Shown here: one piece after another, positions 10,830 through 64,000 of the stretch
How the letters are laid out: each line of letters starts with the position of its first letter
Position numbering within the stretch: the stretch's first letter is position 1
Assembly: GCA_965206645.1 (NCBI GenBank)
Contig: CBDBKE010000004.1
Location: 1,541,552-1,605,551 of the forward strand
Origin: Terriglobia bacterium
Lineage (GTDB): Bacteria > Acidobacteriota > Terriglobia > JAJPHL01 > JAPKYU01
Direction of reading: 5' to 3'
DNA length: 64,000 nt
Made by a program: the position numbers and the translations under genes
Notes under the pieces: generated by a model
Seen by the model: only the letters and a program-made list of their open reading frames with translations
Databases searched by the model: none
Told to the model about the DNA's origin: nothing

Positions 10830-11827
10830 TACAACCCTCCTTTTGCCGCCTTCGCTGCGCCACCGGCAGCGGCTCCGGTGCCGCCCGCCGCCGCCATTGC
10901 CGCTCCCGTGATCCCGGAGCTGGTGACGGCGCTGCCGGTGACCAGCATGGAAGCCAGCTCGCCGACCTTGAGGGATGCCAGAATGCCGGCCACGAACAGC
11001 GGCAGGATAATCAGCACCCATCCTCCCATTACGGTTATGTCGAAGCTGATGACCTGGTTGGAGAAGGTAGTCACATAGCCCAGCGCCACGCCCATGAACA
11101 CCCGCATGACGGCTCCGGCCAGTGCGCCGTAGAGGCTGAAAACGATCAAGGATCGGAACCAGCCCCAGAACAGAAACGACATAGGCTCAAACAACAACCA
11201 GGGAATGAACAGCGGTCCTAAAAAGACAAGAATGGCAATCGCGAGCTGCGCCCAAAGCACCTGAGCGTAGGTGATGCAATACAGCAGCACCAGCATAGTC
11301 ATTGCAAAAATCATCATGATGGTGGCGGAGAACAACGTCATGATGGCGGCTCCGCCGGCTGTTATCAGGTCCCAAATCTGGTAGCCGTCCCACGCATCGG
11401 TGATGCGGGTCAAGTGGGTGTTGATCATGTTGGATAACTCGGTCCGCATGGCGGTTCCGACGTCGGCTATAAACATATCCATCAACCAGTTTCCGCCCTC
11501 CACAATCATGCTCGGAAAGGTGTAGGCGTTTGCTGGCACAGGCAGCGGGGTATCGTAGAAGTGCAGCATCACCCACGGAATCCAGAGGCCGATAATGAGC
11601 TTGATTAACTCCCACGGTTGGAAAGAGCCGGACAGGGCGATTTTCACCCCTGTCCAGACAATCATGATGGAGGCAAGCCCGGTCCAGAGCTGTTCTCCGG
11701 TAGACAGCAAAAGGGGGCCGCTGCCCCCTATGATGTTGTTCATTACTTGGGTCAGGAGACTTTCAAAGTTGTCGAGGTCTCCTGCCGGGATGTTGGTCGG
11801 AACAACTGGATCAATCTGTAATTGCAT
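10829..11827 (-). CDS. trbL: Conjugal transfer protein TrbL (VirB6-like)
   Basis: Polytopic membrane protein with a Gly/Ala-rich C-terminal tail (AAMAAAGGTGAAAGGAAKAAKGG), typical of TrbL. Confidence 0.8.
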   Translation of the reverse strand: MQLQIDPVVPTNIPAGDLDNFESLLTQVMNNIIGGSGPLLLSTGEQLWTGLASIMIVWTGVKIALSGSFQPWELIKLIIGLWIPWVMLHFYDTPLPVPANAYTFPSMIVEGGNWLMDMFIADVGTAMRTELSNMINTHLTRITDAWDGYQIWDLITAGGAAIMTLFSATIMMIFAMTMLVLLYCITYAQVLWAQLAIAILVFLGPLFIPWLLFEPMSFLFWGWFRSLIVFSLYGALAGAVMRVFMGVALGYVTTFSNQVISFDITVMGGWVLIILPLFVAGILASLKVGELASMLVTGSAVTSSGITGAAMAAAGGTGAAAGGAAKAAKGGL

Positions 11828-11871
11828 TGCTGTCTACCTCATTCTGCGGACCGGACTGCCGTCGAACGGAT

Positions 11872-12240
11872 TTACGGGGCGTACATGGGATGCAGTTGCA
11901 CTTTGAGACTGTCTCCGCCGTCGCTGCGTGAAGAAATCCCGGCAATCCGTTCGTTGAATACAATCTGCCCTTGCTGCCGATCGGCGAGCTGCGCTGCTAC
12001 GCGCTCCCGCCGGCGGCGTTCGGCTTCTAGTTCTTCCGCCGCTTGCTGCGCGGCCTGGAAGGCTTGCAACTGCGCCATTGCAGCGGTCAACTGTCCCTGA
12101 GTGACCATGCCGGCAACCTGGGCCTGGCCTAACGCGGTGCCGGATACGTTGCTGTTAGACCGCAGTCCGTTGTAGGAATCGAGAGCGGATTTGATCGCCG
12201 CCGACGCCTCTGCGGCGGCATCGGAGACGGCGTAATTTTG
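11872..12240 (-). pseudogene. trbJ: TrbJ-like conjugal transfer protein, C-terminal fragment. The N-terminus with its signal peptide is missing
   Basis: Gln/Ala-rich coiled-coil (QLTAAMAQLQAFQAAQQAAEELEAERRR). The in-frame upstream stretch NYAVSDAAAEASAAIKSALDSYNGL... ends abruptly at ~12240. Confidence 0.45.
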
Positions 12241-47879: not shown

Positions 47880-48436
47880 CAGAATGCCTCAAGAAGGGAA
47901 GACACCAGGCTGGCGGCGAAGGAGCGGCCGAGTCGTTCCACGGCCGGGCCGCTTTCTTCAAAGTAGGTGGCCGCGTCGCCGCTGACCTCGTGGGTTTCTG
48001 TGAAGCGGAAGTCGGGATCCTGGAATAGCAGTTTGCCGGTGTGCTGGTCGGTTAGCTTCACTCGCATGCGCACGGCCATGCTCACCGCGGTGGTGCGCCT
48101 TTCGGAGGAATCCACCAATATTGGCGTGGTCCAGAACTGGATCACGGTGCCCGTCAGGACCGCGTCGCTGCCGGCCGGTTCCGGCTGGATGCGAAATCGG
48201 GTACGGGCCAGTAATTCGCGCACCACCGCCTGGGTGAGCACTTGCTCGACTTTGTAGCGCGAGGTCTCGTTGCGGAAGGCAGGGACGGCGATGGTTTTGA
48301 CCTCAGCGGGGATTTGCGTCCCCTTGCCGGCCACGTGGTAGCCGCAACCGTTGCCCGCAAGACCCACCATCAGGACCACCGCGACCAGAGCTGCGCTGCT
48401 TGTCCTCAATTCCGCACCCGGCACTCCCTGCTTCAT
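47879..48436 (-). CDS. lptE: LPS-assembly lipoprotein LptE
   Basis: Lipobox LAGNGC|GYHV and LptE beta-domain. Start MKQGVPG at 48436. Its stop overlaps the holA start. Confidence 0.65.
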   Translation of the reverse strand: MKQGVPGAELRTSSAALVAVVLMVGLAGNGCGYHVAGKGTQIPAEVKTIAVPAFRNETSRYKVEQVLTQAVVRELLARTRFRIQPEPAGSDAVLTGTVIQFWTTPILVDSSERRTTAVSMAVRMRVKLTDQHTGKLLFQDPDFRFTETHEVSGDAATYFEESGPAVERLGRSFAASLVSSLLEAF

Positions 48437-49473
48437 TCGACTCGCAGCCTGGGGATTCGCACCCTGGCCAGCTCCTCGGCAATACAGACTGCGTTCAGCG
48501 CCGACAAGCGCAGATTGTCGGCGGCGGCCCACAGCCAGTAACCGCACGAGCCCGCGCGATCCCGGCGGATATCGCCGACCAGGATGTCGTCGGAGGCGGC
48601 AGCTCCCACCGCCGTCGGCGCCTCTTCGCTGCTCCGGCGCAGGTCGAACCCGTCTCCCGACAGGGCCTCCTCAAGGTCAGCGGCATCGCGGGGCTGCTCC
48701 AGCTCCAGGTAGAAAGAAAACGTGTAGGCGTGGAAGGTAGGCGATTGCACCACCCGCACCGCAGGCCGCAACGCGCGGCCGCCCAGCAAGCGCTCGACGT
48801 GGCATCCAACCCGCTGCTCCACCTCAGCCAGCGAAGCTTGACTGCCCTCCCCGCAGGCGGCCAGCAGGTTAAACGCCACCTGGCTGCCGAACACCTGCTG
48901 CGGCACCTTTTGGAAACGGAGCAGGCTCATGGTCTGCTGGTGGAGTTCCGCCACTCCGGCCGCGCCGCGCTCACTGGCCGGCTCAAAGACGTTCACAACA
49001 GCGCGAGTCAGCGAAAAGCTGGCGGCCAGCCGTCGCAGGATGGAACTGATCGCCAGGGCTGCCGGGTGCGCCGCTGCGAATATCTTCCCTTCCCCCAGCG
49101 GAAGGTGCCCAGTAGCCAGCGGGCCGGCTACTGGCACCTCCGGCATCGCCTCCTCCAGTACCCCGCTCAGGTCAATCAACCGGCTACCTTTGCCCTCGGC
49201 CAATTTCCAGCAGTGCCGCATGAAGGGAGCCGAACCTGTGAAAAAGGCAAAATCCACCTGCTCAAAGCTCCCCTCATCCACGGAACGGATAAAGGTGGGC
49301 TCGCCTTGAAACTCGGCCAGTTGTCCTTGCCGTTCCTCATCATCCAGCAAGGTCAGGCGGCGAATAGGGAAAGAGCGTCTCTCCAGAACTTCTTTGACTT
49401 CCTTGCCCTTGAGCGAGGACGCTCCCACCAAGGCGATATGGAACCCGGCGTGAGGCATGTGGCCCTCAGGCAC
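48433..49473 (-). CDS. Semialdehyde dehydrogenase family protein (aspartate-semialdehyde dehydrogenase-like)
   Basis: N-terminal NAD-binding FHIALVGASSLKGKEV and a semialdehyde-DH dimerisation domain. Confidence 0.5.
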   Translation of the reverse strand: MPEGHMPHAGFHIALVGASSLKGKEVKEVLERRSFPIRRLTLLDDEERQGQLAEFQGEPTFIRSVDEGSFEQVDFAFFTGSAPFMRHCWKLAEGKGSRLIDLSGVLEEAMPEVPVAGPLATGHLPLGEGKIFAAAHPAALAISSILRRLAASFSLTRAVVNVFEPASERGAAGVAELHQQTMSLLRFQKVPQQVFGSQVAFNLLAACGEGSQASLAEVEQRVGCHVERLLGGRALRPAVRVVQSPTFHAYTFSFYLELEQPRDAADLEEALSGDGFDLRRSSEEAPTAVGAAASDDILVGDIRRDRAGSCGYWLWAAADNLRLSALNAVCIAEELARVRIPRLRVE

Positions 49474-50320
49474 CGGCGGGAAGATCCCCCGGAGGCGGCA
49501 CGGGGCGAGGGAAGCGGCGGCGAAAGAGGCCGCCGACGCGGGCCACTACGCCAGAGCCGGCATAGGTCAAGGCCATGGCCAGAAGGACCGGCTCGGAATA
49601 AAACCAGATAGCGGCCACCAGCGCGCCGATTGCAATCACGGGGACGAAGCGGCGGCGGCGACGCAGGTCCAGGTCCTTGAAGCTGTAATAGCGCCAGCGG
49701 CTCACCATTAGCAGTGCGATAGCCAGCAAAATCGTCAGCCACGCCAACGACCAGCCCCACCAGACCAGCGGTCTGCCGTTTCCGACGTGCACGATCGCGG
49801 CCAGTAGTCCGGCCGCCGCTGGAATAGGCAGGCCCGAAAAATATTTGCGGCCTGGACGCCCCGGATTGGCCAGCACCGGATCGGACTGGATGTTGAATCG
49901 CGCCAGCCTCGACGCCCCACAGAGCACGAACAGAAAGCTCAAGAACCAGCCCGCGCGATGGACGTGCTCCATCAACGCGGCACTACTCGGATCAACCCAG
50001 CGGATACCCCAAGTGAACGCCAGCAACGCCGGGGCAACCCCAAAGCTGATGACGTCAGCTAGCGAGTCAAATTCCCGACCGAACGCGCTGGCCGTGTTGG
50101 TCAGCCGGGCCAGGCGGCCATCCAGAAGGTCGAACAGCACGGCAAACCCGATGGCTTTCGCGGCGGCATCCAGATGCTGCGCGGCCACCTCCGGCGCGAG
50201 CACCGCCTCGAGGATCTGCGTTAGGGCAAAGTAGCCGCAAAACAGATTGGCCACGGTAAACAGGCTAGGCAGCAGGTAGGCGCCTCGGCGAACAGGCCGC
50301 AATCGGTTGGTCGTGGCCAT
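49466..50320 (-). CDS. pssA: CDP-diacylglycerol--serine O-phosphatidyltransferase (CDP-alcohol phosphatidyltransferase family)
   Basis: D-G-x2-A-R...G-x3-D-x3-D motif (DLLDGRLARLTNTASAFGREFDSLAD). Start MATTNRLRP at 50320. Confidence 0.8.
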   Translation of the reverse strand: MATTNRLRPVRRGAYLLPSLFTVANLFCGYFALTQILEAVLAPEVAAQHLDAAAKAIGFAVLFDLLDGRLARLTNTASAFGREFDSLADVISFGVAPALLAFTWGIRWVDPSSAALMEHVHRAGWFLSFLFVLCGASRLARFNIQSDPVLANPGRPGRKYFSGLPIPAAAGLLAAIVHVGNGRPLVWWGWSLAWLTILLAIALLMVSRWRYYSFKDLDLRRRRRFVPVIAIGALVAAIWFYSEPVLLAMALTYAGSGVVARVGGLFRRRFPRPVPPPGDLPAGA

Positions 50321-50321
50321 C

Positions 50322-50942
50322 TCAGTTTCTCCGCGCCAAGATAGTCGTGCCCGCGCGGACCCGCGTCCCCCACGGCACCAGAATTTCCCAGCTCGAGTCC
50401 AGAAAGACATCCACCCGGGACCCGAGTTTGATCATCCCGACTCGTTCCCCGCGAGCTACGCGATCCCCTTGCTTCTTCCAGAAGACGATGCGGCGGGCCA
50501 CCAGGCCGGCAATCTGCTTGAACACGACCACCCCTTCCGGCCCTTCTACAGTCACCGAGTTGCTCTCATTTTGAACCGAGGCCTCGGGCCGGTTAGCCAT
50601 CCGGAAGCGCCCCGGGCTGTATTGGACATCGCGGATGAAGCCAGCGATCGGCGCGCGGTTCACGTGGACGTCAAAGGGCGAAAGAAAGATGCTGATGCGG
50701 CGAACGGGGCGCCCTTGGTGCTCGCCCGCGCAGATGTCCACCACCCGGCCATCGGCCGGGGAAACCACCACCGGGCCCGGGTCGTTGGACACCAGACGCT
50801 CAGGATCTCGGAAGAAATAAAGGAGAAAGAGCGCCGCGGCCAGCGGCGGCAGGGCAAACCACACCCCAGCCAGCCAGGCCAGGAGCACCGCAGCCAGGCT
50901 TAGTGTTACGCCATAGCGGATTCCGTCGGAGACCACAGCCAC
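50322..50942 (-). CDS. psd: Phosphatidylserine decarboxylase (short, PSD-type proenzyme)
   Basis: LGST-like self-cleavage region (GMIKLGSRVD) and PSD fold. Adjacent to pssA. Confidence 0.8.
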   Translation of the reverse strand: MAVVSDGIRYGVTLSLAAVLLAWLAGVWFALPPLAAALFLLYFFRDPERLVSNDPGPVVVSPADGRVVDICAGEHQGRPVRRISIFLSPFDVHVNRAPIAGFIRDVQYSPGRFRMANRPEASVQNESNSVTVEGPEGVVVFKQIAGLVARRIVFWKKQGDRVARGERVGMIKLGSRVDVFLDSSWEILVPWGTRVRAGTTILARRN

Positions 50943-51045
50943 TCCCGTATTTTACCAGAGCCCCAAAGCCTAAAGGGGGCGATGAGCCTTTGCGGCGCAT
51001 CGCCCCTCTGTGTTTCCCGTCTGCCAGTCAATCGGCCAAAGACCG

Positions 51046-51285
51046 TCAGGCCACCGAAGGGTGTTCCTTCTTATGCTGCTGAATGATCCGCTGCATTTCG
51101 TCTTTCAGGCGGAGTTTCAGCTTCTTTAGCTTCGCCTCCTCCAGCTGCTCCTCGTCATTGAGGTAGCTCTTGCTGGAGAGCTCTTGCAGTTGTTCGTCGT
51201 AGATATGGTGTTGATCCGCCAGCCTTCGAAATTCCTCATTGGTTGCCACCAGGTACCCTTTGAGATCCTGAGGGCGATCCATCAT
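51046..51285 (-). CDS. DUF465 (YdcH-like) small coiled-coil protein
   Basis: EEQLEEAKLKKLKLRLKDEM matches the DUF465 pattern. Confidence 0.6.
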   Translation of the reverse strand: MMDRPQDLKGYLVATNEEFRRLADQHHIYDEQLQELSSKSYLNDEEQLEEAKLKKLKLRLKDEMQRIIQQHKKEHPSVA

Positions 51286-51361
51286 AAGGTATGCCTCCGG
51301 GGAAGAAGTCTGGGGTCAGACTAGCACAGCGCGCGAGCCGGTTCAAGGAACAAAGCGGCGG

Positions 51362-51811
51362 TCAGCTCCCGGCAGCCTTCTTGGCCGCCACCTTGGCCGC
51401 GAACCTGGCCCGGTCCACGATGGCGCGCCCGACCGTGCCCCGGCCGATCTGTTCGCGCTCGTCGCGCGCTTCCACGCGGAATTCTAGAAAGCGACCGTCC
51501 ACCCGGATCAGTTCTGCGCGCACCGTCACCTGCATCCCCTCCGGGGTAGCCGCCAGGTGCTCGACGTGGATCGCCGTGCCCAGGGTAAGGGTCCCCGGCG
51601 GCAGCGCCGGCGCCACCGCCTGGCCTGCGGCCCGTTCCATCGCCAGCACCATCGCCGGGGTGGCATAGACCGCCGGCATCGCCGGGTCGTGCGACTGCAC
51701 GGTGAGCGAGTGTTCCACTCGCTCGCTGAATTCGTAAGAGAGGCCCGGTTGCAGCTCTAGGGGCTCCGAAGATCCACCCGCCGTGCCGCCTGGTATCCCT
51801 GGGGTGTTCAT
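51362..51811 (-). CDS. Hotdog-fold thioesterase family protein
   Basis: Size and central-helix pattern of thioesterase superfamily members. Confidence 0.5.
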
Positions 51812-53076
51812 TGTGCTTTGACCTTGCGCTGCGCAGCCACAGCCTCAAAAGCGGTGGCCGCGGCGCGGACAGTGATTTCGATATCCGCTTCGCTGTGGGC
51901 GGCGGAGAGAAACGCCGCCTCAAACTGCGAGGGCGGCAGGTATATGCCTTCTTCCAGCATGGCACGGAAGAAGGCGGCGAAGGCTTCGGTATCACTGGTC
52001 TTGGCCGTCGCATAGTCTTTCACCGGACGGTCGGTGAAGAAAAAAGTAAACATGGACCCGCGGCGGTTGATGGTGAGAGAAACCTCGGCGGTCGCCGCGG
52101 CTGAAGCGACGCCGCTGGTCAGCCCTTCTGCCCGCTGGTCGAGTCCGGCATAGAGATCGGGGTCGCGGCGCAGCACCCGCAATGTCGCGATGCCTGCAGC
52201 TACCGCTAGTGGGTTGCCCGAAAGCGTACCCGCCTGATAGACGGGACCTTCCGGGGCTATCTGCGCCATGATCTCGGCCCGCCCGCCATAGGCACCCACC
52301 GGCAGGCCGCCGCCGATGATCTTGCCCAGGATGGTCAGGTCCGGAACGATTCCGGCCAGCCGTTGCACCCCGCCAAACGTCAGCCGGAAGCCGGTCATCA
52401 CCTCGTCGAAGATCAACAGCGCTCCGGCCTGCTCACTCCGTCGGCGCAGCAATTCCAGGTAGCCAGGCTCGGGGGGTACGCAGCCCATGTTGCCCACGAT
52501 CGGCTCGACGATGACGCAGGCGATTTGGCTGCCAAAGCGGTCAAAGGCTGCCTCCAGCGCCGCGAAGTCGTTAAAGGGCAAAGCGAGGGTCTGACGCGTC
52601 ACTTCCGGTGGCACGCCGGCGGTGTCGGGCAAGCCGAAGGTGGCCACGCCCGAGCCCGCCTTCACCAGCAGGGAATCCACGTGCCCGTGGTAGCAGCCTT
52701 CGAACTTCACCACCAGCGTCCGGCCCGTAAAGGCTCGCGCCACGCGGATGGCGCTCATGGCGGCCTCGGTGCCCGAGTTCACCAACCGCACTTTCTCCAT
52801 CGAAGGGAAAGCTTCGCAGATGAGCGAGGCCAGTTCCAACTCGCCCTCCGTGGCAGCGCCGAAACTGGTGCCCCGCCCCACCGCCTCTCGCAGCGCGTCG
52901 ACCACCTCCGGATAGCAGTGACCCAAGATGAGCGGTCCCCAGGAGTTGACATAATCCAGGTACTCATTGCCGTCCACGTCCCAGACCCGGGCGCCTGCGC
53001 CGTACCCCACCACGACCGGCTCCGCACCCACGGCGCGGAACGCGCGCACCGGCGAATTCACCCCGCCGGGAATCAA
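51808..53076 (-). CDS. hemL: Glutamate-1-semialdehyde 2,1-aminomutase
   Basis: Class III aminotransferase with the PLP-lysine region ([10 protein letters not shown]...). Confidence 0.9.
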
Positions 53077-53287
53077 TTGCCGGGCACGGCGGAAAATTTC
53101 TTCCGATTGTTTATGCGGCTTCAGGTCGGCCTCCTTGCTGCTCTCGGCCCAGCAGGCTCCGGACCGGTAACGCGACGCCCGATCGCGGCCATCTGGGCTG
53201 CGGCAAAGGCGCCGGCAGGCCCGCCCTCAACCACTGCGATGCAGCTCGGTTGGCGCGATGCCGTTTCGGCTTTCCCCGCATCGGCTA

Positions 53288-53680
53288 TCAATACCGCCCA
53301 CCACCTCCAGCTTCCTGCGGCGCGGAGGTGACTCCCTTGGTCTTGTCGCGCTCCACCAGCCAGGTGCGGCTTCCCGCGCGCTTCAGCACGTAGCGCAGCG
53401 AAACGCTCGATTGCGGGTCTTCCCTGCCGTGAAACAGCACCGTAGCCTCCGCTTGGTCATCTCGGAAGGTGACCTGTTGGATTTCCATGGACATGGCCGT
53501 GGGCGACAAAATCGGGCGCGAGTTCACGTAGTCCTGGATGGCCTTCTCGACATCGGCTCGATCGTTGACCGGCGCCTGCTGGGAGCAGCCCGTGACGACG
53601 GTCAGCAGCAAGCAAAGCGCCACTAGCGCAGGCATCCGCCCTGAGGCTAGCGCAGAAGCTCGCACGCATACAAGGAGCAT
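53288..53680 (-). CDS. Small hypothetical lipoprotein
   Basis: Signal + lipobox LLTVVTGC|SQQ. No known domain. Confidence 0.4.
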   Translation of the reverse strand: MLLVCVRASALASGRMPALVALCLLLTVVTGCSQQAPVNDRADVEKAIQDYVNSRPILSPTAMSMEIQQVTFRDDQAEATVLFHGREDPQSSVSLRYVLKRAGSRTWLVERDKTKGVTSAPQEAGGGGRY

Positions 53681-53751
53681 TCCGATGACGCCAGCTTAGG
53701 TCTCGATCCTGCCGACAAACCGCCCGCCCCGGTCGTGCTACAGTGGTGGCA

Positions 53752-55089
53752 ATGCTGGACTTGAATTTTGTACGAAAGAACCTGGACCTAGTAACCCAGA
53801 AACTGAGCGCGCGTGGTTTGACCAGCACTGGCCTGGAACGATTTCAGGAAATAGACACCAAACGCCGGCGGGCACTGACGGAAGTCGAAAAGCTGAAGAA
53901 CAGACGGAACGAAGCCAGCAAGAAAATTGCACATTTGAAACAGGGCGAGACGTTCACCCCATACGGTCCCCAGCCACCGGAGGGACTGAAAGAGCGATTC
54001 CGCGAGATGCGAGCGCTCTCCGACCAGATCAAGGAGATGGACGAGCGAGCGGGAAAGCTGGACGCCGAACTGCAAGAGCTACTGGCGGGCTTGCCGAATG
54101 TGCCGCACGAGACCGTGCCCGCCGGCCGCACCCCCGAGGACAACGTGGAAGTGCGTCGCTGGGGCACGCCGCCGCAGTTTTCCTTCACCCCGCGACCACA
54201 CTGGGAACTGGGAGAAGCGCTGGGCGTGCTGGACCTGGAGCGCGCGGCTAAGATCACCGGAGCGCGCTTCGCGGTCTACTGGGATCTGGGCGCGAAGCTG
54301 GAACGCGCCCTGCAGAACTTCATGCTCGACCTGCATACGCGCGAGCACGGCTACCTCGAAGTGCTGCCGCCTGCGATGGTAAATTCCGCCAGCCTGTTCG
54401 GAACCGGGCAGTTGCCCAAGTTCGCCGACGACCTGTTTAAGCTCGAAGGGCACGATCTCTGGCTGACCCCCACGGCCGAGGTGCAGTTGACGAACTTGTT
54501 CCGCGACGAAGTGCTGGAGACCGAGCAGCTCCCGATCAAGCTCTGCGCGTTTACCCCATGCTTCCGCAGCGAGGCGGGAAGCTACGGGAAAGACGTCCGC
54601 GGCATTATCCGCCAGCACCAGTTCCAGAAGGTGGAGCTGGTGAAGTTCACGCATCCGGAGCGCTCCTACGAGGAGCTGGAAGAGCTGACCCGCAACGCCG
54701 AAACCATTCTGCAAGAACTGGGGTTGCACTACCGTGTGGTGGCGCTATGCACTGGTGACCTGGGCTTCGCCTCCTCCAAGACCTACGACATCGAAGTCTG
54801 GACACCGGCTCAGGGCGTCTACCGGGAAATTTCTTCCTGTAGCAATTTTGAGTCCTACCAGGCGCGGCGCGCCAATTTGCGCTTCCGCCCACGGGCGCGG
54901 GGCAAGACCGAATTCGTGCACACCCTGAACGGCAGCGGCCTAGCGATCGGGCGCACTTGGCTGGCGATCGCGGAAAATTACCAACAGGAAGATGGCTCGG
55001 TTCTGCTTCCCGAGGTACTGCGCGGCTACCTGCACGGCGCCGAGCGCATTGCCGCCACGGGCAAACTGGTGGGCGCGCGATCCTCCTGA
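53752..55089 (+). CDS. serS: Seryl-tRNA synthetase
   Basis: N-terminal coiled-coil arm and class II motifs ([38 protein letters not shown]). Confidence 0.9.
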
Positions 55090-55113
55090 GCCGGTAGTGT
55101 CTCAGTTTGAATG

Positions 55114-56157
55114 TTAGCGGCTGCCTGTAAGTTCGTAGTGATCCCGCTCTTTGTCACACATCCAGGGCGGTTGCCTATTACCCCGGAAACCCGTTCCCGT
55201 TTCGGTACTAGCGGGTCCACCAACGGAGCCAGGAATGGGTGCATTGAGTCTGAACATCTGTGTTCCATTACATCCCGGATGCGTACAAGGTCTTGTTTCA
55301 TTCTCTGTCGGCATGATCTGTACCTCAACATTCAGTTTACCCAGAAGCGCGATTTCCTCTAAGTCCCAAACGTGATCGGCAACCCCAGCCTCCATTGCCG
55401 GTGTGACCCTGAGCGTCTTGTGGATACGGGCGAAGTTGTAGTACATGAAGTATAGGGCTAGCGCCGCCGCGTGGTTCTCTAGCTTCTTTGAAAACCCATT
55501 GGTCAATCGGGTGAACCTCCTCATGTACATGCGCATCGTGAGGTTCTGCCGCTCTATGTAGCTCGTGCTTATATGCTTTGGGTGAGGGTTCCCCATGACA
55601 ACGGTAGGAACCGCACCGATGCACTGTGCGGGACTGTGCCGCTTCTCCTGCTCGGAATCGGCCCCATACAGTTTGACCAGCATTGCGTAGTCAACGCCCG
55701 AACCAAAGGCACCTTCGACAGCGGTTAAATACGCCTTGTGACCGTCCGTTGTGAGTTGCACGCGATTCGCCAGCCGTCCAGCAAGATCGTCAATGAATTC
55801 CTTCGCCGTATGTGCATCGCGTGAACCGAGCCGCCAAGATAGAACTAACTTCGTATCCGCATCCATGGCCGTCCAGGTCCACACGTCGCCAGCGTGCCCG
55901 CGCTCCAGCATCTTCGGCGTGACGTTCTTTTCCTTCGCATAGACAAAACTCCAAATCTCATCGCACTGAATTCGGTTTAGCTTGAGATTACGGAACATGC
56001 GGTCCTGAAAGTCGGAGCACGCCGCGCCCACCTCGACCAGCAGCTTCGTGACGGTGTTGATAGAAACATCGGCCATGCGGCTAGTGGAGCGCAGGCTGCT
56101 ACCCTCAGCCAACATTCCAAGGATCGCGGTGCGTTTCTGAATTGGTAAGCGATTCAC
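55114..56157 (-). CDS. IS1/IS1595-family DDE transposase
   Basis: N-terminal HTH. C-terminal YIERQNLTMRMYMRRFTRLTNGFSKKLENHAAALALYFMYYNFARIH matches the InsB-like signature. Lower GC than its surroundings. Confidence 0.65.
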   Translation of the reverse strand: MNRLPIQKRTAILGMLAEGSSLRSTSRMADVSINTVTKLLVEVGAACSDFQDRMFRNLKLNRIQCDEIWSFVYAKEKNVTPKMLERGHAGDVWTWTAMDADTKLVLSWRLGSRDAHTAKEFIDDLAGRLANRVQLTTDGHKAYLTAVEGAFGSGVDYAMLVKLYGADSEQEKRHSPAQCIGAVPTVVMGNPHPKHISTSYIERQNLTMRMYMRRFTRLTNGFSKKLENHAAALALYFMYYNFARIHKTLRVTPAMEAGVADHVWDLEEIALLGKLNVEVQIMPTENETRPCTHPGCNGTQMFRLNAPIPGSVGGPASTETGTGFRGNRQPPWMCDKERDHYELTGSR

Positions 56158-56292
56158 GGTCCAAGCATAATGAACTCTCCATATTGCGTCAAGCAGTAAG
56201 TTCAGTTTAACGCCATCGGTTCAGTAGTGTATTGACATCATTCCCAGGGCTTGCTATGCTCATGCCCGGCGATTTCCCAAGGGCCATGATGA

Positions 56293-56589
56293 ATGGAAGT
56301 CAAGTTCAACGACAAAGACTTGGCGCTCATAGAGACAGACCGAGCGGCGGAGACGCGTCTGCCCGTATCCGTCATCAACTCTTCCAGACGGAAGTTAGTG
56401 GTGATTCGGGCGGCACCCGACGAGAGGACGTTAAGAAACTGGAAGAGTCTTCACTACGAGAAACTGGAGGGCAAGAAGAGCGGACGACGGTCGATCAGGC
56501 TGAACGACCAGTGGCGGGTAGTCTTTACTCTCAACACGGACTCCAAGCCAAACAAGATCACAGTCTTGGCAGTCGAGGACTATCACTGA
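56293..56589 (+). CDS. higB: HigB-like (RelE/ParE superfamily, plasmid-killer family) toxin
   Basis: WRVVFTLNTDSKPNKITVLAVEDYH C-terminal signature. Confidence 0.75.
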   Translation: MEVKFNDKDLALIETDRAAETRLPVSVINSSRRKLVVIRAAPDERTLRNWKSLHYEKLEGKKSGRRSIRLNDQWRVVFTLNTDSKPNKITVLAVEDYH

Positions 56590-56600
56590 AGGGGGCAACT

Positions 56601-57734
56601 ATGTCAGCCACGAACGCGAACTGGATTATGCACCCTGGGTTTTACATCAAGGAGGAGATGGAGGAGCGCGGCTGGCTCCAGCGCGACCTTGCTTTCATAC
56701 TCGGTTGCCCGGAGCAGGCGGTGAATATGATTCTGTCCGGTAAGCGCGGAATCAGCCCTGAGATGGCAAAGGCACTCGGCGAGGCATTCGATGTTCCGGC
56801 AGAGTTCTTTGCAAATCTCCAGCAGGCCTACGATATGGCGCAGGCACGCAACCCCGATCCGGGTGTCGCCGTGCGCCGGAACATGCAAAGCACCTACCCC
56901 GTGCGGGAAATGATAAAGCGGGGCTGGATCGAGTTGTCCGATCCGGCACTTCTTGAGTCTCAGCTTGCGAGGCTCTTTCAAGTTGGGGGCGCAGACAAAA
57001 TCCCGTATATGGCGCACCCCGCAAAGAAAAGTAGTTATGAAGAGCGAGATGTCCCGCCCGCTCAGTTGGCTTGGCTGTTCAGGGTTCGTCAGATAGCCAA
57101 GTCAATAAGCGTTCCTCGGTATTCCGAAAGGATGCTACGGCAGGCCCTAGCCGAAATGGAAACGCTGTTGATCGCCCCGGAGGAGGCTCGGTGTGTACCG
57201 CGTATTCTCACGGAGGTTGGAGTCCGTTATGTTCTGGTGGAGAAGCTACCGACCGCGAAAATTGACGGCGTGTGCTTCTGGTTGGATGGGCGCTCTCCGG
57301 TCATAGGCATGTCCCTACAGCACGACCGAATCGACAATTTTTGGTTTGTATTGAGGCACGAGATTGAACATGTCCTCCAGCGGCACGGGCAACAGCAGGA
57401 AATAATCGACGCCGACCTTGAAGGGGCAGGCGGCTCTGCGTGGGGTTCTGTTCCGCGAGAGGAGCAGATCGCAAATGGGGCGGCTGCTAACTTCTGCACC
57501 CCCACGGAAAGGCTGGAATCTTTCATCCGGCGCAAGCACCCCTTCTATTACGAAAAGGATGTCGTGGCGTTTTCTCGCACTCTAAACCGACATCCTGGCG
57601 TTGTGATTGGGCAGCTTCGTCGAAAGCTGGAACGGTACGACTACCTGACTCGCTACTTGGTCAAGATTCGACCGTTCGTGGTCTCCGGATCGATTGCAGA
57701 CGGCTGGGGACAGTTAGCACCAGTTTCTTTGTGA
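56601..57734 (+). CDS. higA: HigA-type XRE-HTH antitoxin fused to an ImmA/IrrE-family HExxH metallopeptidase domain
   Basis: N-terminal HTH (LQRDLAFILGCPEQAVNMILSGKRGISPEMAKALG). C-terminal HEIEH motif in a COG2856-like domain. AAGGGGG RBS. Directly follows higB. Confidence 0.7.
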   Translation: MSATNANWIMHPGFYIKEEMEERGWLQRDLAFILGCPEQAVNMILSGKRGISPEMAKALGEAFDVPAEFFANLQQAYDMAQARNPDPGVAVRRNMQSTYPVREMIKRGWIELSDPALLESQLARLFQVGGADKIPYMAHPAKKSSYEERDVPPAQLAWLFRVRQIAKSISVPRYSERMLRQALAEMETLLIAPEEARCVPRILTEVGVRYVLVEKLPTAKIDGVCFWLDGRSPVIGMSLQHDRIDNFWFVLRHEIEHVLQRHGQQQEIIDADLEGAGGSAWGSVPREEQIANGAAANFCTPTERLESFIRRKHPFYYEKDVVAFSRTLNRHPGVVIGQLRRKLERYDYLTRYLVKIRPFVVSGSIADGWGQLAPVSL

Positions 57735-57756
57735 AAGAAAGAATAGAGGTAGACCG

Positions 57757-58216
57757 ATGGCAACTAAAAACGAACAACTACAGCGGGTTTGGCACCACTA
57801 CGATAATCGGCAGGCACACAGGCCACTTAGTGCTCGACAGGCTGTTGAATGGGCTGTTGCGGAGGGACTGCTAGAACTCCCGGAAACCGATCCCTACGAC
57901 GTGCTTGCGGGTGAAATGTCACAGGCCCTTCGCGAGGAGTTCCAGACTGATGAAGAGGGGCGCAGATACAGGGTCAACCACGCTGTCCGCATTACCAAGA
58001 GTGGCGTCCAGCATACCTTCTGGGGGGTTATGGGTTACGCGCCGCACGATTACAATGGAGAAGGCTTTCGCACAGCGGCGTGAGCAGGTGGTCGGAGACC
58101 TTATGCAGCTCAAGACTGATGTTGATGTCTACAACGACATGAATAAGGGCAGGAGGCCTCCGATTCAGATTGAACTTGATTTTAGGGACGATGTGGCAGA
58201 GCGGCAGCAAGTATAG
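57757..58216 (+). pseudogene. Hypothetical protein, apparently frameshifted near 58060 (ORFs 57757..58083 and 57905..58216)
   Basis: Two overlapping same-strand ORFs in different frames. No domain recognised. Confidence 0.3.
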
Positions 58217-58235
58217 AAGGCTCCGCCCCGCAAGG

Positions 58236-58475
58236 CTACGGTTGTCGCCTAGACTTCTTCCAGCGAGCCTGAGCTGCTAGCTTAGCGATTTCTTGCCGCT
58301 GTTCTGACGTAAGGCGCTTTGCTCTGGCACGTCCGCCCTTCAGACCCCCAGCTCTCCTCTTAGAAGGCATCTTCTTGGCCTCGCTGAGGGTATCTTCAAC
58401 CTCACCGGTAGCAATGTCTAGGATCAGCTTGGCTAGCTGGTTTGGATCGCGTGGGCGCTTTGGACCCCCTTGCAC
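58236..58475 (-). CDS. Small basic hypothetical protein (Lys/Arg-rich, possibly DNA-binding)
   Basis: 79-aa ORF with KRRAGGLKGGRARAKRL. Low-GC island context. Confidence 0.25.
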   Translation of the reverse strand: MQGGPKRPRDPNQLAKLILDIATGEVEDTLSEAKKMPSKRRAGGLKGGRARAKRLTSEQRQEIAKLAAQARWKKSRRQP

Positions 58476-58613
58476 TCTGTCAGTATGCCACGCTTAACAG
58501 ACCCCCGCCATCCCTAGTCACTCCCAAACTGAGACACTACCCCCGAGCCAGTCGTGTTGCCAATCCTGCCGCACTTTTGCTATATTGTTTGGTGGTCTTT
58601 GCGCCCACCACAT

Positions 58614-58690
<77 letters not shown>

Positions 58691-58730
58691 ATCATAACCG
58701 CGAACTTTTGCGGTCTGTTAGTTAACGCAA

Positions 58731-58765
58731 GACCCCGACGGACGGCCCCGCCGGGGTCTTGTCGT
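58731..58765 (+). terminator. Hairpin GACCCCG-N14-CGGGGTC followed by a weak T-tract, downstream of the tRNA
   Basis: Read directly. Confidence 0.35.
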
Positions 58766-59318
58766 ATCTGGCGCTTTTCCAATCGCTTGCGCCGACCTAC
58801 ACATTCTTTCCGATTCTCCAGTTCGTAAACTGACGCACGGGGTAGCGCGTGCAACCATGGGGGTTGCGCACGCCCCCCCAAGATATCGTTTACGGATTCT
58901 CCCATTCTCCATTTAACATCCCGCTTTATTTAACGGCCCGGTTGCACGCGGACCACCGAAAGTGACACTTTTTCACTCGCTCCGGTAAGTATCTATTCCG
59001 GTAAGTATCTATATAGAAGCCGGGCCAAGAGGGTCCGGCGGATCACCAGACAGCGGCGGCGGCCGTGAAAACGGAGCCCGTTGTGGGTGCCGGCGACATC
59101 GCCTGGTGCGGTGTCGAGCGGACTCCATCGGCTCCTGACGACCGTTTCCGTCCCACGCGGCATCCACAGCACCTCCTCTTCCGCGGCCTCCCGCCAAGGA
59201 GGACCGGATGCCGACCAACGCAAACATCCCACCCTCCCGCGATGAAGTGATCGCGGAGATCGCCTCGATCCTGGCCCAAGGCTGCCTGCGCCTCCGGAAG
59301 AGTCGACGAATCTCGCCC

Positions 59319-59710
59319 GAGATTGGGAACGAGGCCGGGAAAGGCAAGTATTCTCAGGCGCTTACGGAGAATCGACTTGATCGTTCGGGCCACCGAAGCG
59401 TTCATGAATGAACGAGTTAACGCCCCGAAACGGCAAGGCGGAGGGACCGCCCGCCAGAGGGTGAGTCCATGAACAGGAGGAAATTGAATGAAAGCAAGCA
59501 CCTATCAACAGATCGAGATTGGGAACGAGGCCGGGAAAGGCAAGTATTCTCAGGCGCTTACGGAGAATCGACTTGATCGTTCGGGCCACCGAAGCGTTCA
59601 TGAATGAACGAGTTAACGCCCCGAAACGGCAAGGCGGAGGGACCGCCCGCCAGAGGGTGAGTCCATGAACAGGAGGAAATTGAATGAAAGCAAGCACCTA
59701 TCAACAGATC
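59319..59710. repeat. Perfect tandem duplication, 2 x 196 bp, spanning the RBS and first 9 codons of the DUF2924 gene
   Basis: Copy 1 is 59319-59514 and copy 2 is 59515-59710, identical by eye. Minus ORFs 59043..59501 and 59362..59697 share identical N-termini as a consequence. Confidence 0.85.
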
Positions 59711-60216
59711 CAGGAGCTGTCCCGACTGACCGTGGGCCAGCTCCGGGACAAGCACCTGGATGTCTTCGGTGAGGAGAGCCGCTGCCACCACAAGGCGGCC
59801 CTGCAAAAGCGCATCGCCTGGCGCCTGCAGGCCCTGGCCGAGGGCGGCCTCTCCGAGCGGGCCCGCCGGCGTGCCGAGGAACTGGCCAACGACGCCGATC
59901 TCAGAATGCGCGCCCCGCGTGATCCGATCCGGCCCGGCTCAGCGGAGGTGAGGGCTCGAACGGCGAAGAGCCGCATCCCGCCCTCGCGAGATCCGCGACT
60001 ACCCGTGCCCGGCACACTGCTGGTGCGGGAGTTTCGGGGGCGCGACGTGGTGGTCAAGGTGCTCGATGAGGGCTTCGAGTTCGAGGACCGGCGCTATCCG
60101 TCTCTGTCGGCCATCGCCAAGGAAATCACGGGCAGCAAATGGAACGGGTTCTTGTTCTTCAGCCTCACCGGTGGTGACGCAGCCGCGAGCGGGCGTCACC
60201 ATCAGGGGGTGAGCGA

Positions 60217-60220
<4 letters not shown>
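59684..60220 (+). CDS. DUF2924-family protein (recombinase-associated)
   Basis: PGTLLVREFRGRDVVVKVLDEGFEFEDRRYPSLSAIAKEITGSKWNGFLFF matches the DUF2924 consensus. AGGAGG RBS. Precedes a large serine recombinase. Confidence 0.75.
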
Positions 60221-61770
<1,550 letters not shown>

Positions 61771-61773
<3 letters not shown>

Positions 61774-63076
61774 CCTGACCGGCACTTTTTGTACCAAGTG
61801 GAAAGAGAGAGAATCCACTTGAGGAGGAAGTGAGGTCATGCCGACAAGGAGTTACAAGCCGGAGCAGATTGTAGCGGTGCTACGGCAGATAGAAGTGCAG
61901 ATGGGGAACGGGAAGACTGCGCCCCAAAAAGAAGCTGGAATCCACACCCAAACCTACTACCGGTGGCGGAAGGAATACGGCGGGCTGAAGGTGGTGCAGG
62001 CAAAACGGCTAAAGGAGTTGGAGAAGGAAAACACGCGGCTGAAGCGGTTGGTAGCGGAGCTTTCTCTGGAGAAGCAGGTGCTGCGGGATGTGGCACAGGG
62101 AAACTTCTGAGCCCTGAGCGGCGGCGTTGTGCGGTGGAGCGTGCGTGGGAGCAACACGGGTTGTCGGAACGGCATGCCTGCCGGCTGCTGGAGCAATGGC
62201 GAGGGACACAACGATACGAGCCGATTCATCGGGTGGACGAGGATGCTCTGACCCGAGCGATCATTGCCCTGGGAGCGAAGTACGGGCGATATGGCTACCG
62301 GAGGATCACAGCGTTGCTGCGGAGTGCGGGCTGGGAAGTGGGCAAGGACCGGGTGCAGCGGATTTGGCGGCGGGAAGGGCTGAAAGTGCCGCAAAAACAA
62401 AGGCCGCGAGGACGGCTGTGGCTGAACGACGGTTCCTGTGTACGACTGAGGCCGGAGCGACCGAACCACGTGTGGAGCTACGACTTCATGAGTGCCAGAA
62501 CGCACGAGGGGAGAACGCTGCGGCTGCTGACCTTGCTGGATGAGTACACGCGGGAATGCCTGGCGATCCGGGTGGAGCGGAGGATGGGCAGCCAACAAAT
62601 CATTGAGGCGTTGTCGGACGTGATGTTGTGGCGAGGGATACCGGAACAGATTCGATCCGACAATGGTCCCGAGTTCATCGCCAAACAACTGCGCCAGTGG
62701 TTGGCAAATCTAGGGACCGGGACACTGTACATCGAACCGGGCAGTCCCTGGGAGAACGGGTACTGCGAGAGTTTCAATGGGAAGCTGCGGGACGAATGCC
62801 TGAATGGAGAGATCTTCTACTCGTTGAAGGAGGCACAGGTGGTGATTGAACAGTGGAGGGTGCAATACAACACGGTGCGGCCGCACTCGGCGCTCGGCTA
62901 TAGGCCCCCGGCGCCGGGGGCCTATAGCATGATTCGCTCCAGAATTCTGGTGTTTCGATCTTCGCCGAGTCGCCGGTCCGGGAGTCTGCCTCCCCTGCCA
63001 CTGAAACCAGTTTCACAGCCCCAGGCTGCGATGTAAACTCTCACTACGGTTGGTACAAAAAATCGGTCTGGTCACA
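61771..63076 (+). mobile_element. IS3-family insertion sequence, copy 1. orfA is 61838..62110 (HTH) and orfB is ~62100..63036 (DDE integrase core) in the -1 frame
   Basis: Imperfect terminal IRs: TGACCTGACCGGCACTTTTTGTACCAAGTGG at ~61771 and TGTGACCAGACCGATTTTTTGTACCAACCG (reverse complement) at ~63076. orfB carries DDE motifs (WSYDFM, LDEYTRE, SDNGPEF...E). Confidence 0.75.
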
Positions 63077-63098
63077 TCGGCTACGGCCCGTGAAGGCG

Positions 63099-64000
63099 TG
63101 ACGTGACCGGGGGTTTTTGTACCAGGTGGAATAAGAGAGAATTCACCTGAGAAGGAGCCCCGATCCTGTCGACGAAGAGGTATAAGCCGGAGCAGGTTGT
63201 AAACCTCCTCCGGCAGATCGAAGTGGAGACTGCCAACGGGAAGACCACGCCGCAAGCCTGCCGGGATGCTCAGCTCACGGTGCAGACGTAGTATCGCTGG
63301 CGGAAGGAGTTTGGCGGGCTGAAGCTAGACCAAGCGAAGCGGCTGAAGGAACTCGAGAAAGAGAACTCTCGGCTCAAGCGGTTGGTGGCCGAGCTTTCCC
63401 TGGAGAAGCAGGTTTTGCGGGATGTGGCGCAGGGAAACTTGTAAGCCCTGAGCGGCGGCGTTGTGCGGTAGAGCGTGCGCGGGAGCAACACGGGTTGTCG
63501 GAACGGCATGGCTGCCGGCTGCTGGGGCAATGGCGAGGGACACAACGATACGAGCCGAATCCTGTGCTGGACGAAGATGGCCTCACCCGAGCGATCGTTG
63601 CCCTGGCGACGCAGTACGGGCGCTACGGCTACCGGAGGATCGCGGCACTGCTGCGGGGTGCAGGCTGGCCAGTGGGCAAGGATCGGGTGCAGCGGATCTG
63701 GCGGCGGGAGGGGCTGAAGGTGCCGCAAAAGCAAAGACCCCGAGGACGATTGTGGCTGAATGACGGTTCCTGCGTGCGGCTAAGGCCGGAGCGGCCCAAC
63801 CACGTGTGGAGTTACGATTTTGTCAGCGGCAGAACCGAGGAGGGGAGAAAGCTGCGCATCCTGACGCTGATTGATGAATATACGCGGGAATGTCTGGCGC
63901 TGCCGGTAGAGCGGCGAATGGGGAGCCGGCAGGTGATTCAGACCTTGTCGGAGGAGATGCTGTGGAAGGGCATTCCAGAGCACCTTCGCTCTGATAACGG
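63099..64000 (+). mobile_element. IS3-family element, copy 2 (diverged and degenerate; continues past the window end)
   Basis: Left IR TGACGTGACCGGGGGTTTTTGTACCAGGTGG. orfA lacks an ATG and carries TAG in place of the TAC of copy 1 (63289-63291). The orfB homolog is intact as far as the window extends. Confidence 0.65.

Follow-up and report, generated by a model that had tools for sequence, protein, structure and literature searches.

Large serine recombinases (LSRs) that act as integrases, such as Bxb1, phiC31, A118, CcrAB and XisF, combine a resolvase domain, a recombinase domain, a zinc ribbon and a C-terminal coiled-coil region, are encoded at the edge of the elements they move and recombine attachment (att) sites that have only short identity to each other. 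tRNA genes are generally regarded as sites that serine integrases avoid. Filamentous phages of the phiRSM type integrate at the 3' end of a tRNA-Ser gene using a resolvase-like small serine recombinase. In the prophage WO regions of Wolbachia, a recombinase gene lies immediately 3' of a gene for a DUF2924 protein (PMC10299305). Here we analyse the distal part of a 64,000-nucleotide stretch of a Terriglobia bacterium genome (assembly GCA_965206645.1, contig CBDBKE010000004.1, positions 1,541,552 to 1,605,551 of the forward strand; hereafter the window), in which the left end of an element carrying a DUF2924 gene and an LSR gene is joined to the 3' end of a tRNA-Asn gene downstream of serS.

The window LSR resembles the described large serine integrases in its domain series, in the location of its gene at the element edge as judged from the junction, and in the short identity between the putative att sites. 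It differs from them in that its element adjoins a tRNA gene at the 3' CCA end, that the LSR gene belongs to a conserved operon with DUF2924 and a third gene, p143, and that the copy in the window is a pseudogene. With the phiRSM-type phages it shares a serine recombinase that would have a tRNA 3' end as attB, but the phiRSM enzyme is small, lacks the recombinase and zinc-ribbon domains and has neither DUF2924 nor p143 as a partner. The Wolbachia pairs have the same gene order, DUF2924 followed by the recombinase, whereas no tRNA targeting is described for them and their hosts are Alphaproteobacteria. Searches of open-access text turned up no account of tRNA-targeting LSRs, and none of the three papers found to mention DUF2924 assigns it a part in integration; the supplement of a paper on Mesorhizobium does not show whether its tRNA-Asn integrative and mobilizable elements use serine recombinases. 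Every component of the locus is of a known kind (an IS1-family transposon with passengers, a HigBA pair, IS3- and IS6-family insertion sequences and an LSR integrative element), and the unusual aspect is the choice of target, in that a sizeable minority of the DUF2924-LSR family lies at tRNA 3' ends.

Independent mobile elements downstream of serS

The region 3' of serS is a pile-up of at least five independent mobile elements and not a single island (Table 1). In order it holds a toxin-antitoxin-carrying IS1-type transposon, the tRNA-Asn gene, the broken left end of a phage-like LSR element and three further insertion sequences (ISs). We put the probability at about 0.8 that these elements accumulated stepwise and independently of one another, a transposon and an LSR element at the tRNA 3' end being followed by decay.

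A preliminary description of the window had proposed one tRNA-Asn-associated island running from ~55100 and probably past the right edge. All the features that it names are present, at roughly the positions given. The drop in GC content that it described between ~55100 and ~58500 is real: every 500-nt window across 55000-58999 has a GC content of 0.53-0.57, against 0.58-0.68 across 48000-55249 and mostly 0.58-0.67 after 58750. The tRNA-Asn gene was likewise recovered with ARAGORN and Rfam, and Pfam and NCBIfam found the IS1-like transposase, HigB and the helix-turn-helix (HTH) antitoxin with its weak M78 match, while the Pfam domains and the junction at CCA agree with a DUF2924 and LSR pair integrated at tRNA-Asn as a mobile-element module. 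The low-GC block, however, is a transposon complete in itself, bounded by inverted repeats (IRs) and a target-site duplication and located 5' of the tRNA, outside the LSR element, which does not fit a single island. A scan of 54900-64000 against Rfam detected no structured RNA besides the tRNA.

Table 1. Features at and downstream of serS, in window coordinates.
Feature	Position	Strand	Basis or remark
serS, seryl-tRNA synthetase	53743..55089	+	conserved chromosomal left flank
Target-site duplication, left copy CCTGAGCC	55085..55092	.	includes serS stop TGA
IS1-family transposon with passengers, 3,449 bp	55093..58541	-	corresponds to the low-GC block
IS1-family DDE transposase	55114..56157	-	Pfam DDE_Tnp_IS1 (PF03400), 35.3 bits, cut-off 24.1
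HigB-like toxin (RelE-fold), passenger	56293..56589	+	PF05015, E = 3e-10
HigA-type HTH antitoxin fused to M78 (ImmA/IrrE-like) metallopeptidase domain, passenger	56601..57734	+	HTH_3, weak Peptidase_M78
Passenger open reading frame(s) (ORFs), two overlapping frames	57757..58216	+	no family match in Pfam or NCBIfam
Small basic ORF, 79 aa, inside transposon right end	58236..58475	-	no significant family match
Target-site duplication, right copy CCCGAGCC	58542..58549	.	7/8 positions as in left copy
tRNA-Asn(GTT)	58614..58688	+	ARAGORN; Rfam tRNA 74.5 bits
DUF2924-LSR integrative, phage-like element, left 3.0-kb remnant	58689..61732	+	nucleotide identity to copies
GC-rich hairpin and T-rich run, element left end	58731..58779	+	sequence
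Small ORF, 67 aa, in element leader	59208..59411	+	conserved; own AAGGAGG ribosome-binding site
Perfect 196-bp tandem duplication	59318..59709	+	private to window; single unit in all other copies
DUF2924 protein, 178 aa, intact	59684..60220	+	Pfam E = 1.8e-43; end overlaps LSR start codon
LSR pseudogene	60217..61732	+	Resolvase, Recombinase and Zn_ribbon_recom; ORF 60217-61530
IS6-family IS, left terminal 39 bp, IR GGTACTGTCAAGTT...	61732..61770	+	truncates LSR gene
IS3-family IS copy 1, 1,304 bp, IS407-like ends TGACC...GGTCA	61771..63074	+	Pfam and NCBIfam IS3
24-bp spacer between IS3 copies	63075..63098	.	no match in any fetched sequence
IS3-family copy 2, diverged	63099..64000	+	76-85% nucleotide identity to copy 1; runs off window

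Comparison with three contigs of the same species (L086, L087 and L088; identical SerS, 99.4-99.7% nucleotide identity) and three of related species bore out the expectation that the region is not core, since all six differ from the window downstream of serS, and the region is hypervariable. In L086 the transposon and the tRNA are followed by no more than the initial 43 bp of the LSR element, which the same IS6 end as in the window directly adjoins (at 58731); further right come an IS3 remnant, gdh and other genes, and an IS6-type adjacent deletion of 58732-61732 is expected to give such a pattern. L087 agrees with the window as far as 55215, having entered the IS1 transposon by 123 bp, and then passes into a different region, with a ~130-bp derivative resembling a miniature inverted-repeat transposable element (11465-11596) with IS6 ends GGTACTGTCAAGTT...AACTTGACAGTACC at the rearrangement breakpoint. 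The L088 contig stops at 55173. The hypervariability thus reflects insertion-sequence activity and not a large intact island.

The LSR element joins the 3' end of tRNA-Asn

The left junction of the element lies directly 3' of the CCA of tRNA-Asn, and five of the copies 93-98% identical to it also start directly after the CCA of a tRNA-Asn. The tRNA is host-specific up to its last 7 nt, GGAGCCA (Nitrospira CCCGGGGAGCCA, window CCTGAGGAGCCA): its 3' sequence reads ...CCTGCCCGGGGAGCCA in Nitrospira and ...CCTACCTGAGGAGCCA in the window, and the next 60 nt, which belong to the element, are identical. The same tRNA is present after serS in relatives that lack the LSR element. Together, the host-specific sequence and the relatives with tRNA but no element indicate that the tRNA is the target of integration and not part of the cargo.

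The same left end also occurs away from tRNAs. In two copies of the type found at tRNA-Asn (L003 and L006) it is joined to a non-tRNA sequence ending GGGGAGCCA, and in L034, of a type found at tRNA-Lys, to one ending TCACCA, its close relative L021 being at a tRNA-Lys. What the tRNA and non-tRNA junctions have in common is a core of ~6-8 bp, from which, using the attL-type and the non-tRNA junctions, we deduced the 8-bp att core GGAGCCAA; the final bases of tRNA-Asn, GGAGCCA, fall within it. A core this short fits a serine integrase and not a tyrosine integrase. The preliminary description had suggested looking for the second att half as a repeat of the sequence flanking the tRNA. Such a check presupposes the behaviour of a tyrosine integrase, and here the two kinds of junction share just ~8 bp. 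The right boundary of the element lies outside the window or has been deleted. When intact copies were searched for a second occurrence of the left arm or the core, in direct or inverted orientation, attR was not revealed, and no long direct repeat of the tRNA 3' end lies within 12.6 kb in the intact copies.

The history that we favour would have a phage-like element with a DUF2924-LSR-p143 operon integrating, separately from the transposon, at the extreme 3' end of tRNA-Asn by a crossover within the 8-bp core, such that the tRNA would stay intact and the element would bring a new hairpin downstream of it. If the element did integrate here, the LSR probably catalysed the attP x attB recombination, with crossover inside GGAGCCAA. 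A short hairpin followed by a GC-rich hairpin and a T-rich run is found at left ends across the family; in L009, L021 and L034 the stem bases of the left-end hairpin differ and pairing is, by eye, still possible. From its sequence, the hairpin at 58731-58779 may act as a replacement terminator for the tRNA.

Three further observations concern the junctions. L021 (8612-8700) and L034 (8690) represent a sub-family whose LSR is 85-90% identical to that of the window, L021 being at tRNA-Lys(TTT); the first ~12 nt of the left arm read CTTTTCCAGCC in the Lys-type and AAATCATAACC in the Asn-type, as if changing with the target tRNA. L002 (in the Acidobacteriota metagenome-assembled genome (MAG) OZ252114) has an intact tRNA-Asn (1311-1387) and, 7.2 kb away, a displaced copy of its 3' 53 nt (8632-8684), to which the LSR element is attached; the intervening 7.2 kb holds, by eye, dehydrogenase- and cytochrome-like genes and no integrase, which suggests that this tRNA was used for another integration later on, by which its former 3' end, together with the LSR element, was moved downstream. 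Finally, a 174-bp block (block X; 8504-8684 in L003) precedes the junction in L003 and L006 and recurs in L017, where it lies 3' of an LSR module that is truncated; this block may represent the right end of the element, in which case the L003 and L006 junctions would be attP-like.

The LSR itself has an N-terminal resolvase catalytic domain with the catalytic serine (PF00239, E = 2.3e-37; motif AIYTRKSTEEG), to which recombinase (PF07508, E = 4.6e-13) and zinc-ribbon (PF13408, E = 1.5e-13) domains are C-terminal. Its NCBIfam scores for CcrB and XisF are far under the cut-offs, and its top PHROG match is labelled 'integrase'. Among the ten proteins scanned between 55114 and 63036, none matches Phage_integrase, the tyrosine integrase family. 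The AlphaFold2 model of the DUF2924 protein (pLDDT 75) shows two confident domains, helical at the N terminus and beta-rich at the C terminus, that a disordered linker connects; it gave no PDB fold match with E < 1, and a profile search of PDB sequences returned nothing meaningful. DUF2924 partly matches the RAMA DNA-binding domain, a link that we take from the literature (PMC11342252).

A three-gene module conserved across phyla

Relatives of the LSR were sought in one genome per species, which gave 506, and the best 80 were fetched. They occur across Acidobacteriota, Planctomycetota, Nitrospirota and Gemmatimonadota. DUF2924 lies directly 5' of the LSR gene, its end overlapping the LSR start, in 63 of the 64 loci with enough upstream sequence, and p143, encoding ~143 aa, lies directly 3' of it in 74 of 85 loci (in L005 at 11611-12042, overlapping the LSR stop as ATGA), so that DUF2924, LSR and p143 form a three-gene module. 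p143 has no match in Pfam or NCBIfam, its sole family match being phrog_14161, labelled 'recombinase'. DUF2924 (predicted to bind DNA) and p143 might, speculatively, be accessory factors that assist site choice or directionality.

A tRNA gene on the same strand (Asn, Met, Arg or Lys) is found 1.0-2.2 kb upstream in 18 of the 64 loci, against a chance expectation of ~2% by our rough figure, and a scan for T-arm-like tRNA motifs was positive in 19 of 63. We take as shown this association of the family with tRNA 3' ends, together with the element boundaries, the short core, the conserved operon, the spread in many copies and across phyla and the decay in the window; catalysis of the integration by the LSR and the roles of DUF2924, p143 and LexA are inferred.

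Eight loci (L001-L008) are 93-98% identical in nucleotide sequence to the window over 58614/58682-61732 only, L001 from 59362. They come from a Bryobacterales MAG, CBDFIU (three copies), from OZ252114 (two), from one MAG each of Nitrospira and Terriglobia and from a further Acidobacteriota MAG; identity of 93-98% between copies in Acidobacteriota and Nitrospira MAGs amounts to very recent transfer between phyla.

The leader of ~1 kb is strongly conserved and contains the 67-aa ORF and a palindrome, GTTCATGAATGAAC. The ORF is conserved over its full length at 66-100% identity in ten copies (tBLASTn), with one partial and one weak match in addition, and its substitutions fall mainly at third codon positions. 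The palindrome, one per element and 88 nt before DUF2924, is found at 9380 in L005 and, owing to the duplication in the window, at both 59400-59413 and 59596-59609; the stretch is near-invariant among copies that are only 77% identical overall. Our guess is that it is an operator, perhaps for the LexA-like repressor of the element.

That repressor, a LexA-like S24 protein, is encoded further right in intact copies, as is a cargo that varies and whose products include a DnaG-type primase-ATPase, a RecD-like helicase, a PD-(D/E)XK exonuclease and a QueC-like protein. The repressor would couple excision to DNA damage and, speculatively, may tie expression to the SOS response. The PHROG matches (integrase, DNA primase, exonuclease, repressor), together with the primase and ParB-methyltransferases of a relative found on a viral contig in IMG/VR, indicate phage-like elements. 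Scanning IMG/VR with the LSR yielded only five distant loci, none with usable ends, and scanning it with the cargo primase yielded none; an exact 40-mer of the element left end had 0 matches in JGI metagenome contigs.

In OZ252114 (5285147-5309628), two 4.3-kb DUF2924-LSR-p143-LexA modules (L002 and L003) face each other 24.4 kb apart; they have different cargo arms, one collinear with L008 and the other with L006, which meet in the RecD/primase block. One cargo gene of L002 (13966-16074) encodes 702 aa with a QueC-like PP-loop domain and adjoins a 263-aa gene without an assigned role; the 702-aa protein may be a defence gene product.

Decay of the window copy

Set against the intact LSR gene of L005 (10001-11614; 537 aa), that of the window shows a CAG to TAG change at 61528-61530 (codon 438). 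The change is in frame, which rules out a frameshift as the defect. The gene departs from L005 after residue 505, its last 32 codons being replaced by the IS6 end at 61732. This end is identical to the left end of a complete IS in L086 (14981-15019), which has a PF13610 transposase and the terminal GGTACTGTCAAGTT; the 37-39 bp between the LSR and the first IS3 copy, considered as part of an IS3 end, are therefore the end of an IS6. IS3 copy 1, with orfA (HTH) and orfB (rve DDE) at 61838-63036, splits the IS6 end. It has no target duplication in the window, which points to further rearrangement; the same IS, at 99% identity, interrupts SelO in L087 with a TCAT duplication. The two diverged IS3 copies are present as described before, at a spacing of 24 bp and not 22. 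p143, the LexA-like gene and all of the cargo are absent from the window.

IS26 is known to leave adjacent deletions, and the LSR element shows the same kind of pattern, as the identical IS6 end abuts it at two positions, 61732 in the window and 58731 in L086; it differs in that the window retains no more than 39 bp of the IS and that the order of the deletions is deduced. In our reading the element is dead in this genome: the LSR carries the amber codon, an IS6-family IS has taken its 3' end and everything rightward, and the IS3s then landed in the IS6 end. No cargo is visible in the window, and the cargo previously suggested past 64000 is unsupported, as the LSR is inactivated and cut by the IS6 end and L086 keeps 43 bp of the element and then continues with IS remnants and gdh.

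The premature TAG, the 39-bp IS6 end and the 196-bp tandem duplication had all escaped the preliminary description. The latter doubles the palindrome and the DUF2924 start. A second tandem duplication, of 16 bp (TCCGGTAAGTATCTAT x2, 58981-59012), is absent in all other element copies, and both may represent either real recent slippage or an assembly artefact.

An IS1-family transposon with a predicted toxin-antitoxin pair

Synteny with relatives (SerS homologues 100% and 80-82% identical) is kept upstream of serS and stops at its stop codon. In L090 and L091 (SerS 80-81% identical at the amino acid level), serS is followed by a short spacer and tRNA-Asn without insertion; the spacer aligns with both flanks of the transposon in the window, and the right copy of the duplication aligns with a single GATGAGCC. 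The transposon is bounded by a perfect 17-bp terminal IR, GGTAGTGTCTCAGTTTG (55093-55109 and 58525-58541), which falls exactly at the GC transitions and had 0 matches in shuffles. In our proposal, an IS1-family transposon with HigB/HigA-M78 would have entered the serS-tRNA-Asn spacer with duplication of 8 bp, the tRNA and the adjoining spacer being kept. A promoter-like sequence, TTGCCA-N17-TATATT, at 58553-58590, 5' of tRNA-Asn, is conserved in L090 and L091; the transposon right end falls ~15 bp 5' of this sequence, which is undisturbed.

The transposase scores 73 bits with the NCBIfam IS1 model (NF033558), under the cut-off of 100, which makes it a distant IS1 member, and has a C-terminal extension of ~70 aa compared with 277-aa relatives. 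It has thousands of homologues, of which the named ones are annotated as IS1 family transposases. The closest relatives (82-83% amino acid identity, 277 aa) reside on a 2,245-bp element at L092 and L093 (2603-4847) that is 99.96% identical at these two unrelated loci, has the same 17-bp IRs as the window transposon and, where the latter has HigBA, a SocA_Panacea gene. The 8-bp duplications at its flanks, GGCTCCCT and GGCTGGGA, are exact and are swapped between the loci, indicating recombination (an inversion) between the two copies, and the occurrence of identical ends with different flanks argues for mobility of this type of IS. All three target duplications, those of the window and of L092/L093, start with GGCT in the transposase orientation.

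Long forms of IS1 with passenger genes, the ISMhu11-type 'transporter IS' of ISfinder, likewise have an IS1-type DDE transposase, ends starting GGT, 8-bp duplications and passengers between the transposase and one end. The window transposon differs from them in its sub-threshold NCBIfam IS1 score and in its HigB/HigA-M78 passenger, the closest relative carrying SocA_Panacea; it seems that a variety of toxin-antitoxin-like modules is moved around by the IS1-type transposons here.

HigA scores 54 bits with TIGR02607 (cut-off 47.7) and has an HEIEH motif in its translation; its start coordinate was taken from the gene call in L086. The genes are arranged toxin to antitoxin with 11 bp between them, and by gene content and order the two are a predicted type II toxin-antitoxin pair. 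The two frames at 57757-58216 encode 108 and 103 aa and were called as 54 and 88 aa in L086; they are possibly one frameshifted passenger gene of ~150 aa. The sequence after serS in L089-L091, ACCGGTGGTGGCTGAGCC, can be likened to the transposon IR plus flank (window 55050-55110), which could be due to chance, to insertion beside an IS-end-like sequence or to an old solo end.

Alternative explanations

In a single tRNA-Asn island running from ~55100 to past 64000, all genes would be parts of one unit with uncharacterised cargo beyond the window. The genes do cluster around a tRNA, their GC content differs from the flank and the whole region varies between strains, but we regard this as very unlikely: the low-GC block upstream of the tRNA has IRs and a target duplication of its own, with independent copies at other loci, the LSR element is homologous to its other copies over 58614/58682-61732 only, an IS6 end cuts the LSR, and L086 combines transposon and tRNA with just 43 bp of the element. 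It is hardly credible that tRNA-Asn is borne by the LSR element instead of being its chromosomal target, since the tRNAs differ between hosts at bases that still pair in stems whereas no difference occurs in the next 60 nt, tRNA-Asn holds the same position 3' of serS in relatives that lack the element, and L003, L006 and L034 carry the element without any tRNA. The observations that would suggest such a tRNA are BLAST homology with several copies beginning at its first base and the tRNA-Lys at the same position in L021.

Integration could also have been the work of a tyrosine integrase encoded elsewhere in the full element, DUF2924-LSR being a resolvase- or invertase-type accessory or a nested element. 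Tyrosine integrases classically insert at tRNA 3' ends, L090 has such an integrase beside the same tRNA-Asn, the 53-nt tRNA-Asn fragment displaced by 7.2 kb in L002 is typical of such events, and a tyrosine-recombinase-like ORF was identified by eye 10 kb into L005. We nevertheless think this unlikely, because DUF2924-LSR lies ~1.0-1.3 kb from the tRNA end in the same orientation in most of the 18 tRNA-linked loci, whose LSRs are only 50-65% identical to that of the window, because tRNA and non-tRNA junctions have just ~8 bp in common, and because the protein has the full architecture of an LSR integrase, with 'integrase' as its best PHROG match.

Several points weigh against stepwise accumulation with LSR-mediated entry at the tRNA. 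About 70% of family members have no tRNA nearby, and an attB half-site 3' of the tRNA that is tolerated across phyla would be odd for an LSR. No copy yielded an attR or another right end, nor an empty attB complete with B' arm, so that LSR-mediated integration at the tRNA is inferred from the junctions only. As to the transposon, the target duplication has one mismatch in 8 positions, and in relatives the native sequence that follows the serS stop agrees with the IS end, by hand count, in 17 of 22 positions. Assembly errors could account for the amber codon and the 196-bp duplication, and the analysed sequence ends at 64000.

Implications

The window itself is ordinary, consisting of decayed mobile elements and a dead integrase with no sign of unusual cargo, and for annotation 55093-58541 and 58689-61732 should be handled as distinct elements. 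The main interest is a family-level lead. We tentatively suggest, at less than even odds, that DUF2924-LSR-p143 defines a widespread phage-like family of which a sizeable fraction uses the CCA end of a tRNA as attB, with specificity switched among Asn, Lys, Met and Arg and with DUF2924 and/or p143 as site-selection or directionality factors. If true, this would be an undescribed class of serine integrases with a target choice like that of tyrosine integrases; it would broaden the rules for integration sites, provide testable candidates for accessory or directionality factors and open a new supply of integrases whose attB sites, at tRNA ends, are conserved and can be predicted.

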